Source: Squalus acanthias (Eukaryota). Taken from it: a stretch of DNA of 64,000 bases. Location: contig CM059431.1 of the NCBI GenBank assembly GCA_030390025.1, positions 138,634,001 to 138,698,000 on the forward strand, in the 5' to 3' direction. The notes beneath the pieces were generated by a model. It had not been told where the DNA came from and did not search any database. It saw only the letters and a list, made by a program, of their open reading frames with translations. Below, piece by piece: positions 41,740 through 60,345 of this stretch; position 1 is the stretch's first letter, and each line of letters starts with the position of its first letter. The translations under genes and the position numbers were made by a program.

Positions 41740-43472
41740 GCAGGGCTTGTATGTGTTCAAGTTATCTGCCGTGTGCATTGTTACTGCATCTCATGTCTGA
41801 AAAAAACAGAAAGCATATACCATTAGATTATACTGATTTAATGCCAGACTGCATTATTGTGGGAACTTACTTTGCCTTTCTTTCAAGAATTTTGTAAAAA
41901 GCAAGGCTGCCTATATACATCAAGCTATTTGATATTTTTCTGTACTGGACTTTATAGGGGAATGTTTGTGTAGTGTTTCATGGCACATCCTGTTGTGGGA
42001 CCTTATTCTCCCCTTCAGCCCAACCCAAACAAGACAAGACATTTGTAAAAAAAAAAGTATATATTATATTTTTTAATTATTTTCAGAATAATCCATTTGA
42101 TTTTTTTCTGGACTGGGCTTTATTGGGGAATGTGCTTGAGATGTTTTCAGAGCGAAAGCTGCTGTGCCATCATTCCATTCATTTTATTACATATATAAGT
42201 ATATATGTTATTATTTATTCCCGATTGTATTTACTTCTTTTCACCCTCTCGGGCTTTCATTTCCTCTCGGGGACCCGGATTTCTGGGGCCTTGGCTTCAC
42301 TTCTTCCTGTTTGATTGTCCTCATCAAACATGGACGGACAACCAGGAAGGGACTTCATAAAAAATTGACACTCCCAGGCTGCAAAATCCCTTTCAAAATA
42401 AATATGTGTGTGTGAGTTTCTACAAATTGTAGAGTCTGTGTGAGTGAGTCTGTATGTGCCTGGGTGTCTGTGTTTCTGCATATTGCAGAGTCTGTGTGAG
42501 TGTGTGTCATGTTATTGTACATTTTAGTTCAATGTGTTTGGGAGGGAGACTGTGTGAGTGGCAGACAGTCAGTGAGAGCGAGAGAGACGTCAAAACAAAA
42601 GGCAAGTTGCTGAATAGAAAACCTGTTTCTGTAGGCCACAAAGTGAAAAGATAAGATACTGAAAAGTGTATTTTTCGTTTTAATCTTCCAACACGGCAGT
42701 CATCCCTCTGCAGGCTGGCCAGGCTGTGAGTGTGTGTGTGAGAGAGAGAGAGGACAAAAGCTGGTGTTTGTGTTAGATGTGGTCTGCTGTCTTATTACCT
42801 GTTGTTGTATTAAACTCTATTGATTTCATTCTGGTCTGGTCCACATGTAATGCTGTTGTGTATCACTTTATTGCACTTTATTTCACTTCACCTCACTTCA
42901 AGACAGACAGACAGTGAGATACTGAAAAATATATTTGTGGACTGTCTGACAGTTAAAGCTGCTTTGGGATCTTTGTATTCATTTTATTCCACAACACTGA
43001 AATCAAGACAAGACAGGCAGGCAGGGAGAGAGACACATGAAATCAAGACAACATGCAGAATAGAAATAAAAACAGAAACTGTTGGAAATACTCAGCAGGT
43101 CAGGCAGCATCTGTGGAGAGAGCTAGAAACAGAGTTAACGTTTCAGCTCGATCACCTTTCGTCAGAACCTTGCCAGAATCTGACAATAGGTCATCGAGCT
43201 GAAACATTAGCTCTGTTTCTCTCTCTCTCCACAGATGCTGCCTGACCTGCTGAGTATTTCCAACAGTTTCTGTTTTAATTTCAGATTTCCAGCATACGCA
43301 GTATTTTGCTTTTGATGCAGAATAGAAAGTCTGTTTCTGTAGGCCGCAAAATGAAAAGATAAGATACTGAAAAGTGTTTTTTTGCTTTTCAACTCCCAAA
43401 CACAGCAGAGCAATGAGAGAAATCAACTTTCTTTCACTGCTGACAGTGTTTTGTGACAATTTTGCAGGCTGG

Positions 43473-53022: not shown

Positions 53023-53450
53023 TGTTGTGGGAAATCACCACTCGGAGTCAGACTTAAAGATTCAACATGCAGTTTATTGAACAAAGCTTTGGGAGAAGTA
53101 GTGCACAGTCACTTCTTCTCAATTTAAAATGGCTGTTGTACTTCTTTTTATACATTCCACAAGCACAGCAGTCTTGGTTAGTTACACTTTAGCCAATTAT
53201 TCCCCCCTAGCAACAATGACCTCCAATTACATTCCTTTAAGAACAACCGTTATCTGGACCTTGGTGGTCTGGCTTTTGTCTGTTCTGTAGTTTCAGTAAA
53301 TGACAGGAGGTAGCTCAAGGTTGGTTAGCACATTTTAATGTCTTTTCACAGAGTCCATTTTGTTTCACAGAGTCCCTTTGTTTCACAGAGTCCATTTTGT
53401 TTCACAGAGTCCATTTTGTTTCAGGTAACCATCTCACTTTTACCACAACA
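53023..53450 (-). repeat. ERV 3' LTR
   Basis: TGTTGTGG...CCACAACA; preceded on the minus strand by PPT AAAAGGGGGAAT (53451-53462); AATAAA at 53073-53078; TATAAAA near 53146-53152; 19-bp U3 repeats. Confidence 0.96.
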
Positions 53451-53576
53451 ATTCCCCCTTTTGGTCCTGGAGGATGTTCACGAAATCCAGATGACCAAAC
53501 GACCTCTATGTGTGTGTGTATATCTTTGGGGAATCCACCTCCCTGGTGTTCCGCACATATGACTCCAAGTCACTCT

Positions 53577-55037
53577 TCACAGGTACCTGTCTAGGTCGCC
53601 CTCTCCTTCTCTGGCGTCTTCGGGTGTTCCCATTAGATGTTCTTCCTCAGTGGCCACGCTGGCCCCTGGCACAATCCGAGCCATCATGACTTTACAGCAG
53701 ATATTAAAACATCCGATAATCAAACAACAGACAATTATTATTATAACAAGAATAATTAGTCCATGCATTAAATAAGACCCCCAAGATCCCCCCAATAACC
53801 ATTCGAGCCAGCCATTCCCCTTCTTGGGGCCTTGTCTAAAGTCATCGAGCTGCTTTCTTATGTCATTAATGGCTTGGGTGATGTTGTAGGATTCATCTGT
53901 AACATGCGTTATACATTTGTCTCCGATTATTGTGCATACTCCCCCCTGCTGGGCTAACTGATAATCCACAGCATAGCGGGTCTGCTGCGCGTACAATCTT
54001 AATTCAGCCAGTTCTCGGTTGATGGCATCCAGCCCCTTTGCTGTGCTGTTTCCCAGAATGGTTAATCCACAGATAAGATAGTTCCTATTTTTAGTACTAA
54101 CCACTCCTGCTGTTCCCCCCAGAGACAGGGCCCCTAGAAACCCGTAGCCGAGTGAGGATCCCAGTGTGACCGGATCCTTCCAATCGGCACAAAATTCCTG
54201 GCTGATGGCCCGTGTTACTATCTTTCTCCGGGTATGCCCCTTTCGAGGGCATGGAACAGTGAGTGGTCCTATTGCTCCTACTGCAAAGAGGATCGGGAGG
54301 GTTGGTGTTGCCGTCGTGAAGGTACCGTCGAGGAGGAACACAAATCCCTTTTTGGCTCGGTAACATTTAACATCCTGGTTATTTCTCCGTACGAACTGAT
54401 TATACCGCCAATTGCTCGGTTCACTTGACTTTCCACCCGATCCTACCAATTGGTAAGTATCAAACGGGTATGTCCATGTGGCTGAGCTGACATGAGTCCC
54501 ATTACACTGACCACAAATGAATTGCCTCCCCGCGGTCACATTCAGGCATCTTTGCTCGTTACAGGTACAAGCAAACTGGCCTCTGTTTACTTGACAGTGC
54601 TGACGGGCACACTGCGTCTGTACACAGGAAACATTCTCGGGGACCAAGGCATATGCACACCCCCATCCTTGTCCCGAGAAGCAAAGCGGGTAGCTTGTAT
54701 CGTCTGAGCATACTCTCCCGTTTACTCCCCGGACCCCCCTGCACACAGGATTTGTGGAGTTTATTAGTTCCACACATCTTCCCTGTATACCCCTCCCATA
54801 TTGACCTGTATGTCCCTTACAGGGTACGTCCGAGGTATCTGCCGTATATAAATCAAGGGGGGTCCACCCGGGGGTGGCCACGAACAGGGCCTCTACGGAT
54901 TGGGCTAGCGGGTAACACACGGTTCGATTACCGTGTAAATGTACATGGGTCTTGTAAAATAAGTTATCTTTTAATCCTGTCAGCTTTACAACCGTGACAA
55001 CATAGAGTGACGCAATTATATACGCTATCTTAGACAT
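53577..55037 (-). CDS. env: Retroviral envelope glycoprotein, intact, 486 aa from the ATG at 55037
   Basis: Hydrophobic N-terminus, Cys-rich SU, basic cleavage region RRKIVTR, fusion-peptide-like LGYGFLGALSLGGTAG, heptad plus ISD-like QTRYAVDYQLAQQGGVC, CX6C, TM LIILVIIIIVCCLIIG, cytoplasmic tail. Confidence 0.92.
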   Translation of the reverse strand: MSKIAYIIASLYVVTVVKLTGLKDNLFYKTHVHLHGNRTVCYPLAQSVEALFVATPGWTPLDLYTADTSDVPCKGHTGQYGRGIQGRCVELINSTNPVCRGVRGVNGRVCSDDTSYPLCFSGQGWGCAYALVPENVSCVQTQCARQHCQVNRGQFACTCNEQRCLNVTAGRQFICGQCNGTHVSSATWTYPFDTYQLVGSGGKSSEPSNWRYNQFVRRNNQDVKCYRAKKGFVFLLDGTFTTATPTLPILFAVGAIGPLTVPCPRKGHTRRKIVTRAISQEFCADWKDPVTLGSSLGYGFLGALSLGGTAGVVSTKNRNYLICGLTILGNSTAKGLDAINRELAELRLYAQQTRYAVDYQLAQQGGVCTIIGDKCITHVTDESYNITQAINDIRKQLDDFRQGPKKGNGWLEWLLGGSWGSYLMHGLIILVIIIIVCCLIIGCFNICCKVMMARIVPGASVATEEEHLMGTPEDAREGEGDLDRYL

Positions 55038-55143
55038 ATTTGTTACGTTCCAACAATATAATATTAATTTGGACTTGCTTGCAGTCGTCACCTGTTTGGG
55101 GAAGGTATCCTGGTTACTTTATTGATTAATCGTGAATCGTATG

Positions 55144-55793
55144 CTACTCATTAATTTCTTTGTACAATTTCAGCTGGGTCCAATGTTTCCATACACCCTT
55201 CCCTCTTATGTCCAGACAGGCACAGGTGTCTCCACTGATTATGACCTCATATGGGCCATTCCATTTTGGTGCAAACCCCGGTTTTTCAGGTAATGTTTTT
55301 ACCATGACGCGACGTCCTGCCATCGGGACGGCAGGGAGCATTTCAAGCTCTCTCTGTGCGTCTCTTTCTTCCTGATTGTCTCTTACTAATTTACGCATCC
55401 CTTTTAGTTGGGCGCTTAGTTCCAAAACATATCGCTTAATTTTGTCCTTTAGTGGGCCTACATCGGCCCCACCTGTTATGATGTTTTCTGGTAATTGCAT
55501 CGCCCTTCCTGTCATTAGTTCATAAGGGGTTAATCCGGTTGTCCGGTTTGTCGTGGCTCTTAACTTCATTAATATAATCGGTAATACTTCTGTCCACGTT
55601 TTTCCTGACGTTTGCATGGCCTTGGCCAGGGCATTCTTAAGGGTTCGGTTCATGCGTTCTACCATTCCAGAACTCTGCGGATGGTAAGGGATGTGGAATT
55701 TTTGTTTTATTCCCATCAGTTGGCACACTGTTTTTATCACCTTTCCGGTGAAGTGCGACCCTTGATCCGAATCAATTTGTATGGGTGTTCCCC
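55144..55793 (-). pseudogene. pol: Integrase C-terminal half (pol remnant)
   Basis: WGTPIQIDSDQGSHFTG...HIPYHPQSSGMVERMNRTLK...TGLTPYELMTGR...PKWNGPY; HHCC zinc finger and first catalytic Asp are absent. Confidence 0.93.
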
Positions 55794-56308
55794 ATATTAA
55801 CTCTGTTCCCTTTAGTCTGTCCTAGATCGCGTTCCCAGCATATATCCCCGATCGGTCGGCCCTTTCCTGATGTATTGGTAAGGGCTAGAAAAGGAGGTAC
55901 TTTCGTATAATCATACGTCGGCTTGTACCATCCCTTAAAATTTTCTAACGAATATCCTCCCCCCTTAAACTCGTTTCTTAGGCTAGACCACTTTTGTTCC
56001 CATTTAATTCCGAAGGTGGATAGGGTGGTATTTTTCTGTTTTGTATGATTTTTATTAATTATCCATTCTGCCATATCTGTGAGGTTCAAGGGTATCGGTC
56101 GCAGAGGTATTCCTCCTTTCACATGGGTAGGAATATGGCTACATACCCAACAGGCGTTTATCCCACTTTTTTTGGCATACTTATATGACATATATACAAA
56201 AAAAGTGTTCATATGTAATTCTCGTTTCTTTCGGGGTTCTTTTCTTCTCCCTTGGCAGGCTATACATATCAGTCCGATTAGTAGGTAAAACGTAAATAAC
56301 AGCTTCAT
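55788..56308 (-). pseudogene. N-terminal fragment of a second env (signal peptide plus CWVC SU), joined out of frame to integrase
   Basis: MKLLFTFYLLIGLICIACQG signal peptide, RKKR, NTF, CWVCSHIP CXXC motif; ends at RVNMG. Confidence 0.8.
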
Positions 56309-58816
56309 TATTTAAGTCTTTTCAAATTCAAATTCAACTGTCCTTTCCGGTGTTCCAATTCTGCCCCGCCTGGGGTATCCTCTGTTTCTTCTATCTTCCT
56401 GATTTCAAGCAACATTACAGTTTAACATTTAATCAACAAATCATGGACTTAAAAGATTCTCCAGATCTCTCTTTTACTCATATCCATCTTGTGGATAATT
56501 CTTACTAAACATGATTTCTCCTTAGCCCTCAATTGTCCCAATTCAGATTCCAGGTAACTCTCCACTTCAACTTCAATTTCAATCCTTCTAACAGGTACCA
56601 GTGTGTTTAACTCTATTCTGATTGTTTCATTAATTAGATAGTTTCTCGATGGAGTATGTGTCAATGCTTTAAAAGTTGTCTTGCTCTCCTGAGCCACATT
56701 AACCATTTCATGTCTTGCTGTTGTCCAGTAACTGAGCATGTCTGAGACCCGTTCTTCAGTGCAGATTCACCATACATTCCCAGATGGTAATCGCTTCATA
56801 CGTAACAAATCACATTTGCACACTCATACCGGTATCTCAATATCATGCCACATGTGCCTTTCTCGGGCTTTCAGGTATCTTATCAAAAGACTGTCTTTGT
56901 TCATCTTCTTCTGCATGGTCCCAATATCTTGGATAGTGGCCAGGCTATCAAATTCAGTTTTCTTAAAAGTTCATTATAGGCAGGGACACAAATGTCTCCA
57001 AGAGAAAGCTATCAATTTACTATTCTTAACTGCACTTTCCTGACTTTCACTAGCAAGTTTTTTTAAAATTCCCATTCAGCAGTGTAATTTCTCCTGTTTC
57101 AATTTTATACATCCCATTAATTACCATTCATATCTCATTCATGAGCCCTGGAGTAACTTTACTGTCCAGTACAATATTTAAGATTGAAAACATAGATTAA
57201 ACATTCTCACTAGGTCCAAGTTACTAACACTTTTTATTTATCATTATTTTAGAGGATCTTTTATTTTCCCAAAAGTAACCCAAAATATATCTAGTGCCTG
57301 AGTCTATATTGTTATTACAAAATTATCCCAAAATCCAAACAGCAGTACTGTTGAACTGATTGACAAAACCCATGTTCAATTTCATTTCTATCAATTTATC
57401 TTCCATTTCCAATTTCAGAAACAAATGATTTCCAGGCTAGGTGGTTTATACAGTGTTTTAACATTAGAGACAGAAGTGCTGCAATTAGTTTACAAGGTAA
57501 CTTCCATATAACAAAAGAAAGAAGAGAATCCATTGTGACTCTGCTTAGAGCCCAAGGGGTTAATTTATCAAATCATAATTTTCCTTCTGTCACTGTGGGG
57601 AAATATTAACTTAAAATTAATAATGTCCAATATCTTTAAATGTCACACCGAAGTTATTGCTTGATGAACTTAATCAGCTGTCAGTGGAAAGGGTTAACTC
57701 CTTTGCAGGTTTTTAAGAAGGTGGAGCAAAACATTATCAGGCGCACGCAATTGCGTCACTTCACGTAAATTAAAAAAAAACTTTCCCGATCCAAAAAAAG
57801 CAGTTGTGTTTTCACACTTTAACTGAACACGAACAGAACAGATAAAACAAAACAAAATAGCACATGCTTGCAGAACTAGTAAATTATATCATATTTCTTA
57901 TTGTCCTTTCTTCAGATATCTTTCCAAAATACTGTAAAAACATTGAATTTAAACAAATCAAATCAGAGTGCTTTGGAAGATTTCACCATAGCAACCGCAA
58001 CTCCAAGGTTAAATCTTAGACCGAAACTTAATCTTTTGTTAAACAAACTTTTTTTTTTTTTTTTTTGTTGTTCTTCTCAGTTTTTACACACCAGCTTAAC
58101 TTAAATTGTAATTCAAATTATTATTTATTTATTTTTATTTATTTTTTTCTCTGGCACAATGCTTTCCCTGCAAAGTCTGATATAAAATTCCTGTCTATCC
58201 CTGACAGTAAAGGTGAATTTCCTTGTGATTCCTCTGCCAATGGTATGGACCAGAACCCATTCTGTATCCAAGACTGTAAATATTTCAAAATCTGGTTTCA
58301 GACCATTAAATATCTTATTCAATGCGGTCTACACAAATTTACACCAACCAGAATTTCACCGTGCACAATGAAAGTCTGGTTTTTAATAGGTTAATTAACC
58401 TCAATAATTCCAATTCAATCCAGATCAATTTTTTTTAAACTAACCAGTGTCAGTTGCAAAATAAAGAACACATCGTCACATTAACAAAGAAACAATTACC
58501 ATGCCTTGTAAACATTCAAATTAATTGTCATTTTCTTTCCAGGCACATTGGCAACTGTGACTTCAAGGCTGAAGCTTATACCTCTTTTGTAAAACAATTA
58601 ACAAACTTAAAACAACACACTTGAGTATCATTCAAGACAAGTCTTCAAAGAGTTAAAAACAGCTTTTAGCTCTCTGTACAAAAGAGTGGGTGGAGCTAAA
58701 ACATAAACAAACTGACAGACACTTTTTTTAGGCAGATTTTTTTTTCCAGGGACAAAATAATACTGTAACTTAACAAACTTAAACATTCACACAATCAGGA
58801 ATCTTTTACACACTTT

Positions 58817-59188
58817 TCACACAACTGAGATCCCAGTATTCCTTTTAAGATTCCTTTCACTCAACAAATCTTGTATATATGTATATGTATATATATATAT
58901 ATGTATATTGTCAGTATTCAATCGTTTAGTCCCATTCCATGGTCTGTTATTAGTCAAATTCATCAAACTGGTAGTATTGAACCACCAGCTTTCCATGGAA
59001 CTCCCTGCCCCGTACGTAATAAACTTTTGTATGCAACGACTTTTCCCCATATTAACTCTCTGTTGTTCTAAGGTCTGGGAAACATCCCAGCCATCCTTTT
59101 GCATCTTCTTAATCAACGAGCGTCTGTCTGTCATATATTTATCAATAAGGGAACCTGCAGGTCCCCACTTAGTTTCCCCATCTTTCAT
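58817..59188 (-). CDS. Chimeric short ORF: possible gag N-terminus fused to an env SU segment
   Basis: First ATG ORF after the leader; RVNMG junction shared with 55788-55804; three N-glycosylation sequons downstream. Gag identity is by position only. Confidence 0.45.
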   Translation of the reverse strand: MKDGETKWGPAGSLIDKYMTDRRSLIKKMQKDGWDVSQTLEQQRVNMGKSRCIQKFITYGAGSSMESWWFNTTSLMNLTNNRPWNGTKRLNTDNIHIYIYTYTYIQDLLSERNLKRNTGISVV

Positions 59189-59189
59189 C

Positions 59190-59454
59190 TTACGGGCTTT
59201 TAAACCCCCTATCTTGCGGGCTTTTAAACCCCCCTCTCCTACGGGCTTTTAAACCCCCTATCTGTTTATACTCACGGCCACGATTACCGTCTCAGCAACG
59301 TGTTTCCTCCACCGGAACCCTCGTCTCTTACGGGCTTTTAAACCCCCTATCTTGCGGGCTTTTAAACCCCCCTCTCCTACGGGCTTTTAAACCCCCTATC
59401 TGTTTATACTCACGGCCACGATTACCGTCTCAGCAACGTGTTTCCTCCACCGGA
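59190..59454. repeat. ERV leader repeats (CGGGCTTTTAAACCCCC units within a duplicated ~140-bp block)
   Basis: Block 59188-59314 is repeated at 59327-59454. Confidence 0.9.
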
Positions 59455-59895
59455 GTCCGGCTCTAGGTCAGGGTGATCAGCTCCTTACCGCACCGCTTAA
59501 AACTACAAACAGTACATACTCGTGAATTCTTATACTTTATGTACCTCTGCGTTTGTTCGCCACTACAGAGTTTGATGCCGAATGGTCCTTACTACTTGTG
59601 CTTCACGATCCTAAGTGCCTTGGTGCCTCTACGCCCACTTTATGGTCCTGACCATCGCGTGGGGGATTTCCCCTCTTAACAACCGGTCTAAGGCTGCGCG
59701 TTTGAGAAAGGCACTTCCTTGTCCTTAGTCGATCAGCACAAGCAATCAATTCCCGTTTCTATCCGATAGTCCCATAAATTCCCCTAATTTTTACCGGTTT
59801 TTAACTGCATTGTTGGCTCAGTCTGACTCCCACAGTTCAATAATCTCTACTCCAGTTCGCTGATCGAGGCCAACCGATCAACTCACCAGCAGTGA

Positions 59896-59914
59896 GATCC
59901 TGTTCGTGACGCCA
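59896..59914 (-). promoter_or_regulatory. ERV primer-binding site, tRNA-Lys(UUU)-like, followed by a splice donor CTG|GTGAGT at 59886
   Basis: TGGCGTCACGAACAGGATC three nt inside the 5' LTR boundary; compare Lys3 PBS TGGCGCCCGAACAGGGAC. Confidence 0.8.
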
Positions 59915-59917
59915 ATT

Positions 59918-60345
59918 TGTTGTGGGAAATCACCACTCGGAGTCAGACTTAAAGATTCAACATGCAGTTTCTTGAACAAAGCTTTGGGAGAAGTAGTGCA
60001 CAGTCACTTCTTCTCAATTTAAAATGGCTGTTGTACTTCTTTTTATACATTCCACAAGCACAGCAGTCTTGGTTAGTTACACTTTAGCCAATTATTCCCC
60101 CCTAGCAACAATGACCTCCAATTACATTCCTTTAAGAACAACCGTTATCTGGACCTTGGTGGTCTGGCTTTTGTCTGTTCTGTAGTTTCAGTAAATGACA
60201 GGAGGTAGCTCAAGGTTGGTTAGCACATTTTAATGTCTTTTCACAGAGTCCATTTTGTTTCACAGAGTCCCTTTGTTTCACAGAGTCCATTTTGTTTCAC
60301 AGAGTCCATTTTGTTTCAGGTAACCATCTCACTTTTACCACAACA
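59918..60345 (-). repeat. ERV 5' LTR (promoter)
   Basis: Identical by eye to 53023-53450 except position 59971 (AATAAA to AAGAAA on the minus strand). Confidence 0.96.

Follow-up and report, generated by a model that had tools for sequence, protein, structure and literature searches.

A family of endogenous retroviruses in Squalus acanthias with a circularly permuted segment of a second retroelement in place of much of gag-pol

The window, the 64-kb stretch of DNA analysed here, contains an endogenous retrovirus (ERV) that is almost certainly a helper ERV whose gag-pol portion has been swapped for a permuted segment of a donor element. Alignment to a parent-type helper copy, L053, shows that 4,131 helper nucleotides, from early gag to mid-integrase, are absent from the window element, and that 3,272 nt of donor sequence in circularly permuted order are inserted. 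On the minus strand, the element reads LTR, leader, gag start, donor piece B, AT-rich DNA, donor piece A, the 3' part of integrase, a full env and LTR (Table 1). The preliminary description of this DNA had the order right, and its main proposal, that most of gag-pol gave way to a permuted 3.27-kb segment of a different retrovirus, is borne out by the identification of both parents and by the contiguity of A and B in the donor. The recombinant forms a young, non-autonomous ERV family of at least 25 copies.

Table 1. Features and junctions of the recombinant element, in minus-strand order (positions in the window)
Feature	Position	Strand	Remarks
5' LTR, helper-derived	59918..60345	-	428 nt; 1 difference from the 3' LTR; 100% identical to the L053 LTR
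Primer binding site	59897..59914	-	begins 3 nt past the LTR; presumably of tRNA-Ser type
Helper leader, presumed packaging signal	59189..59896	-	60345-59060 against L053: 98% identity, 2 substitutions, one gap of 24 nt
Tandem repeat of 138 nt at the leader	59188-59454
Helper gag start	59060..59188	-	about 43 codons; frame continues into piece B
J1, helper gag to B	59059-59057	-	3-nt strict microhomology
17-nt repeat, upstream copy	59043-59059	-	identical to the downstream copy
Piece B, donor env SU	58907..59059	-	153 nt (51 codons); directly follows A in the donor, in the same frame
TA-rich donor 3' UTR	58872..58906	-	about 35 nt; rest of env already gone in the donor subfamily
J2, end of B to upstream donor	58872-58878	-	7-nt microhomology
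AT-rich decayed donor gag-pol interior	56309..58878	-	RT remnant inside
RT remnant in AT-rich DNA	58313-58167	-	tblastn, E 1.3e-5
Piece A, donor env N-terminus	55788..56308	-	hydrophobic start, RKKR, CWVC
17-nt repeat, downstream copy	55788-55804	-	identical to the upstream copy
J3, donor A to helper integrase	55795-55788	-	8-nt microhomology
Helper integrase, 3' part	55144..55795	-	Pfam rve; 100% identical to L053; out of frame with A
Helper env	53577..55037	-	486 aa from ATG; Pfam TLV_coat and Ebola-like HR1-HR2
3' LTR	53023..53450	-	purine tract just before

The recombinant retains the LTRs, primer site, leader, purine tract and env of the helper. L053 has the same LTR together with gag, pol and env frames, in which we found zf-CCHC (gag), RVP-RVT_1-RNase H-rve (pol) and TLV_coat (env); its reverse transcriptase (RT) is nearest to the foamy-virus and MLV RT structures, with similar scores for both. 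From position 55795 onward, the window element is 100% identical to L053, and its integrase part is 100% identical to six matches with long pol frames among the 150 scored. About 6-16 helper copies are present in the genome. ARAGORN detected no tRNA within the window.

The donor is a second, non-autonomous, env-bearing LTR element of the same genome. Its copy L054 has 562-nt LTRs of its own, a different primer site and an AT-rich interior, and is 97.4% identical to positions 58878-55788 of the window over 3119 columns. Among the best 150 of the 1,204 candidate matches to piece A that were scored, about 125 are not copies of the recombinant family. Proviruses with A and B contiguous, for which the preliminary description had proposed a genome search, do exist: in eight of the ten loci L043-L052, A passes through the 17-mer straight into B, and the remaining two loci are copies of the recombinant family. 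The two pieces were also rightly described as joining into one env frame, as they lie in single frames of 490 and 494 aa in the natural donor copies L055 and L056, both of which match Pfam TLV_coat (E 1e-15 and 9e-15); the L055 frame has CWVC and CX6CC. Thus, A runs into B in donors and not into unrelated sequence, and B is donor env rather than ordinary gag or leader. Piece B is 98% identical to L055 and L056 at the amino acid level. It had been taken as env throughout, which holds for its first 153 nt; the following 35 nt or so are 3' UTR, since the closest donor subfamily already lacks env beyond B. The 2.5 kb of AT-rich DNA noted earlier can now be identified as decayed donor gag-pol because it holds an RT remnant and because integrase remnants are still present ahead of env in L056. 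The A and B haplotypes differ too little among donor subfamilies to be assigned to one of them.

The reading frames of the recombinant reflect this history. The preliminary description had piece A fused to integrase; the DNA is indeed joined, but the two are not in frame, and the 178-aa A frame stops at 55772-55774, four codons past the 17-mer. No Pfam domain was detected in piece A or in the gag-B frame. A search with piece A among longer proteins gave none of 192 candidates at E <=0.001, which is weak evidence, and the env identity of A was settled instead from the natural donor copies. Piece A has no significant similarity to the helper env, and alignment of the donor and helper env proteins is confined to helper-frame residues 337-500, at about 35%. 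In the ten copies examined, the A frame and the helper env frame are always open, and the length of the fused gag-B frame varies (67, 109 or 123 aa). As the copies differ from the window by only 0.2-0.5%, the intact A frame in all ten shows no selection. Secreted truncated-Env restriction factors such as Refrex-1 and suppressyn are expressed, secreted and conserved by selection, and they block a receptor.

A census in which each junction was searched separately, and the best 40-41 matches scored per junction, found J1, J2 and J3 each spanned at full length in the same 25 loci; no locus with J1, J2 or J3 alone occurs among those matches. This co-occurrence identifies an amplified family and not an artefact. 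The spacing between J1 and J3 is 3,239-3,265 nt in 24 loci and 3,385 nt in one. Of 17 scored candidates for the whole 7.3-kb element, 15 places, the window included, match it nearly end to end at 99-100%. The 428-nt LTRs have the TG...CA ends of a provirus, the two LTRs of a copy are identical in eight copies and differ at one of the 428 positions in two, and target duplications of 4-5 nt flank nine of the ten copies examined, including a 4-nt duplication at the outer edges of the window element. The family spreads by integrase-type insertion. An assembly collapse at the 17-mer, raised in the preliminary description, or a sequencing artefact there has next to no probability: the at least 25 loci have distinct flanks, nine of the ten copies examined carry such duplications, and contigs from two of four outside sequencing runs (X1 and X2, from two studies, one of which may underlie the assembly) cross both J1 and J3 with at least 31 letters on each side. 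Among the 32 listed of 5,272 pieces, none bridges J2 by 31 letters on both sides (27 in X2), and none from runs X6 and X12 bridges J1 or J3 by the 31-letter rule. The recombinant outnumbers the helper among the matches scored, with at least 25 copies against six near-identical ones. VL30 and MaLR are non-autonomous ERVs amplified by complementation in trans, and this would most simply account for the amplification seen here as well, with Gag and Pol presumably supplied by helper copies.

Two copies of a 17-mer bound the insert. Their identity was already reported in the preliminary description. When 53454-59187 was shuffled 200 times with dinucleotides preserved, no exact repeat reached 17 nt, the longest per shuffle being 11-16 nt. 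The repeat is donor sequence present twice and not a target duplication. At J1, allowing a 2-nt slip extends the microhomology to 7 nt. A match of 11 nt between gag and the donor begins 9 nt into the repeat, and the crossover is not placed there. As a helper match to the donor end, the gag site ranks first (12.5 against 11) only when four upstream donor bases are included in the query, and is otherwise tied with two other sites. Helper gag and integrase have an 11-nt word in common, which contains the 8-nt match of J3.

The preliminary description offered two routes to this structure, two microhomology-guided template switches or recombination with a circular intermediate. Two switches are insufficient because a third junction, J2, lies inside the insert. 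Neither does a simple crossover with a circle fit: the repeat is donor-derived on both sides, the microhomologies of the outer junctions differ, 4,131 nt of helper were lost, and J1 lacks the gag bases that such a crossover would keep.

We consider it probable that three template switches within one reverse transcription of co-packaged helper and donor RNA formed the hybrid. Since minus-strand synthesis proceeds from integrase to gag, the order of events would be J3, J2, J1. RT on the helper integrase would jump to the donor env at the 8-nt match, then copy A and about 3.1 kb of upstream donor, with RNase H destroying the copied stretch and sparing the donor RNA located 3' of the entry point. 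Stalled near two predicted hairpins, RT would re-anneal through 7 nt to this intact RNA about 190 nt 3' of the entry. It would then copy B until it reached the RNase H-cut end at the entry point, 14-17 nt into a stretch that it had copied before. With its template exhausted, it would switch to helper gag through 3 nt, the 11-nt match perhaps serving for docking. As exit would be forced at the cut end, it would coincide with entry, the 17-nt repeat would arise, and the last junction would be the weakest. In this manner, a single linear donor RNA could yield both the permuted order and the short repeat of donor sequence, and a circle would not be required.

Several observations fit this sequence of events, besides the presence of both parents, the microhomologies and the co-occurrence of the three junctions. 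J1, where exit would be forced, is the weakest junction, and RT would have gone past the 11-nt match without leaving its template there. The model of forced copy choice at breaks in the RNA is established, and so is deletion with insertion by retroviral template switching, according to the cited excerpts (PMC3187697, PMC4997597 for the latter). For HIV-1 RT, the excerpted data place RNA cuts 18 bp behind the primer end, with fragments trimmed in a 13-19-nt window (PMC3185654). The observed overlap of 14-17 nt falls within that window, although this is a single event and the distances are those of HIV-1 RT and not of the RT involved here. We give slightly less than even weight to the reading of the 17-nt donor-side repeat as a fossil RNase H footprint, in which RT falling back onto the uncopied 3' part is halted at its own cut. 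Other considerations weigh against the formation of the hybrid in one round. Three non-homologous switches per cycle represent a rare event, non-homologous recombination being at least 1000-fold rarer than homologous recombination in the excerpted account (PMC3187697). Co-packaging is only presumed, and the donor LTR and primer site differ from those of the helper. The 11-nt word common to helper gag and integrase could have sufficed to place both outer junctions here, with no part for RNase H. With one assembly and the best 40 candidates scored per junction, there may have been intermediates that are now lost, and micro-duplications of 1-27 bp have also been found at DNA-circle insertions, as excerpted (PMC7450558).

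A stepwise origin would spread the switches over several cycles. A backward jump of RT at J2 would duplicate 3,255 nt of the donor in tandem, and this donor would later recombine with the helper by two switches, in at the 17-mer of one unit and out at that of the other, guided by the word common to gag and integrase, and the intermediates would since have been lost. One or two switches per cycle would then suffice. The 17-mer is matched by both helper gag (11 nt) and helper integrase (8 nt), and exact matches of at least 11 nt in the upstream helper exist for only 2.8% of donor 27-mers. We nevertheless regard this origin as unlikely, as the crossover bypassed the 11-nt match and used 3 nt, the 669 exact matches of at least 8 nt between the helper and donor interiors imply that entry was not confined to the 17-mer site, and the census yielded no single-junction locus among the 40-41 matches scored per junction. 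A little more doubtful is a co-packaged circular donor RNA of 3,255 nt closed at J2, around which RT would travel once before leaving at an RNase H nick. The permutation, the exit at the entry point and the 17-nt repeat would be explained equally well, with two switches; however, a microhomology of 7 nt is characteristic of template switching or DNA end-joining and not of RNA ligation. Spliceosomal back-splicing at J2 was rejected, since neither strand shows GT/AG anywhere in the 7 nt over which the junction is ambiguous.

A circle of genomic DNA is also conceivable. Donor DNA would have been excised as eccDNA through joining at the J2 microhomology, and MMBIR or end-joining would then have placed it in a helper provirus, with deletion of 4.1 kb. 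Reversed order, microhomologies and gains or losses of 1-27 bp make up the published signature of circular DNA, according to the excerpt (PMC7450558). We find this improbable: the target would have been one of about 6-16 helper copies of some 8 kb each in a genome of 3.7 Gb, both the donor and the recipient are retroviral sequences, a single crossover would have retained ten gag bases that are absent at J1, and a nearly identical donor exit in a second family points to a cause at the RNA level.

That second helper-donor family, which lends the template-switch model independent support, emerged from the helper gag search, in which 24 of 40 matches end at one common point. In one of them, L057, an LTR, leader and gag of the helper lineage are joined to the same donor interior, and its junction is spanned by 27 of 40 scored matches at 94-100%. 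The donor breakpoint is located 14-27 nt from J2. The second family is older than that of the window, whose interior is 97% like L054 and only 87-90% like L057 (73% in one gapped block). Because of this divergence, and because the second family lacks donor bases that the window element has, the two recombination events were independent. The shared exit spot has two predicted hairpins and the lowest folding z of 124 donor windows (-3.0, with 2 of 200 shuffles as good). As this is the best of 124 windows, a z of -3 is modest, and the predicted hairpins are suggestive only.

Judged by analogy, this type of recombinant is already known, and the closest known case is recKoRV1, a recombinant of KoRV and PhER. 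According to the excerpted report, recKoRV1 is also a young ERV that keeps its LTRs, leader and 3' end, while a non-autonomous host retroelement, present in many copies and bearing env, takes the place of its middle; it likewise has microhomologies at its breakpoints and many insertions with target duplications, and several independent recombinants arose from the same two parents (PMC6112702). The corresponding features here are helper ends around a segment of a non-autonomous ERV, microhomologies of 8, 7 and 3 nt, at least 25 loci and a second family. In contrast with recKoRV1 as excerpted, the insert in the window is permuted, a third junction lies within it, 17 nt of donor sequence are present twice, the helper env is whole, no donor LTR is included, and the parents are unrelated to KoRV and PhER (PMC6112702). 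The element is not a recKoRV proper, which has KoRV and PhER as parents and a collinear insert with two breakpoints, given its three junctions, its permuted order and its parents, which are this genome's own elements.

Other known systems share part of these properties. Deletion with insertion, or patch repair, by retroviral template switching also involves non-homologous switches at short matches to co-packaged RNA and forced copy choice, whereas a permuted multi-kb insert with coinciding exit and entry, amplified in the germline, is not described in the excerpts concerned (PMC3187697, PMC4997597). Circular-DNA duplications, such as human cSDPs and cattle colour-sidedness, have reversed block order, microhomologies and micro-duplications; as excerpted, each is a large one-off event at the DNA level, at an arbitrary site and with homologies of 1-2 bp, unlike the present joining of two retroviral genomes with 7-8-nt homologies followed by amplification through retrotransposition (PMC7450558). 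Their reversed block order is found in the window element as well, and junction scars do not separate a DNA circle from RT switching. Non-autonomous ERVs complemented in trans similarly keep their cis signals, lose gag-pol and have more copies than their helper, according to the excerpt, but here foreign sequence was captured and an open helper env was kept (PMC10435555). The literature searched, in which older virology is thinly covered, yielded no ERV described as carrying a permuted insert, and vector studies may hold a precedent. The new and testable parts are the permutation, with its potential RNase H footprint, and the exit point common to two families.

Both parents and the product occur together in this genome at 97-100% identity, which allows every junction to be placed to the single nucleotide. 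The family is a rare natural record of a multi-switch recombination whose product came to outnumber its helper. The recKoRV pattern, a resident element disabling a young retrovirus, now extends to another group of vertebrates, here with two families of independent origin. If the RNase H reading is right, the genome would also hold a second system resembling that of recKoRV, in which the donor RNA has a recurrent exit point. The proposed mechanism also offers a testable, circle-free route to circular permutation, with a predicted repeat length set by RNase H. If the RNase H footprint is general, permuted inserts in LTR elements would be no evidence for circular intermediates, and they should bear donor-side repeats of about 13-19 nt.

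The locus L057 (G000:C8:67538300-67546600) belongs to a second, older family of recombinants between the helper, that is, the ERV that shares its LTR with the window element, and the non-autonomous env-bearing donor. When the genome was searched with the L057 junction, the junction was spanned in 27 of the 40 scored matches. The 3' half of L057 is an additional mosaic, with protein-level identities to the helper of approximately 50% in the integrase and approximately 63% in the TM part of env. At the place where both this family and the window family exit the donor, two hairpins are predicted (L054:5523-5602, minus strand, in a donor copy; window 58850-58878), and folding of another donor copy, L056, predicts the same two.

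The donor copies (L044-L052 and L054-L056) vary widely. Many of them lack the 3' part of env beyond piece B, the TA run that follows this piece differs in length from copy to copy, and some harbour a block of approximately 1 kb with integrase remnants upstream of env.

Later changes are found in several copies of the window family: a deletion of approximately 750 nt from env in L018 (G000:C20), a duplication of approximately 130 nt in the copy near 31.71 Mb of G000:C4, and a shortened TA run at J2, the junction inside the insert, in the copy near 6.41 Mb of G000:C2450. The window also contains features outside the ERV, including an open frame with one stretch that resembles a Myb/SANT-type Harbinger protein.

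Other features of the window
Feature	Position	Details
22-nt-unit array	11350-about 13250	in register over about 73 windows, each 300 nt long
Inverted repeat	43063-43282	104-nt arms, 92% complementary, 12-nt gap
Open frame, 272 aa	47243-48061	minus strand

As for the helper-type copy L053, its 3' LTR carries a 333-nt insertion (L053:9088-9422) similar to a repeat seen in another flank. The leader of the window element contains a 138-nt tandem repeat (window 59188-59454), and this region is 24 nt longer than in L053. Finally, the integrase search revealed a large, related ERV family genome-wide, whose integrases are 81-83% identical to that of the helper and many members of which have pol frames of 1,185 aa.
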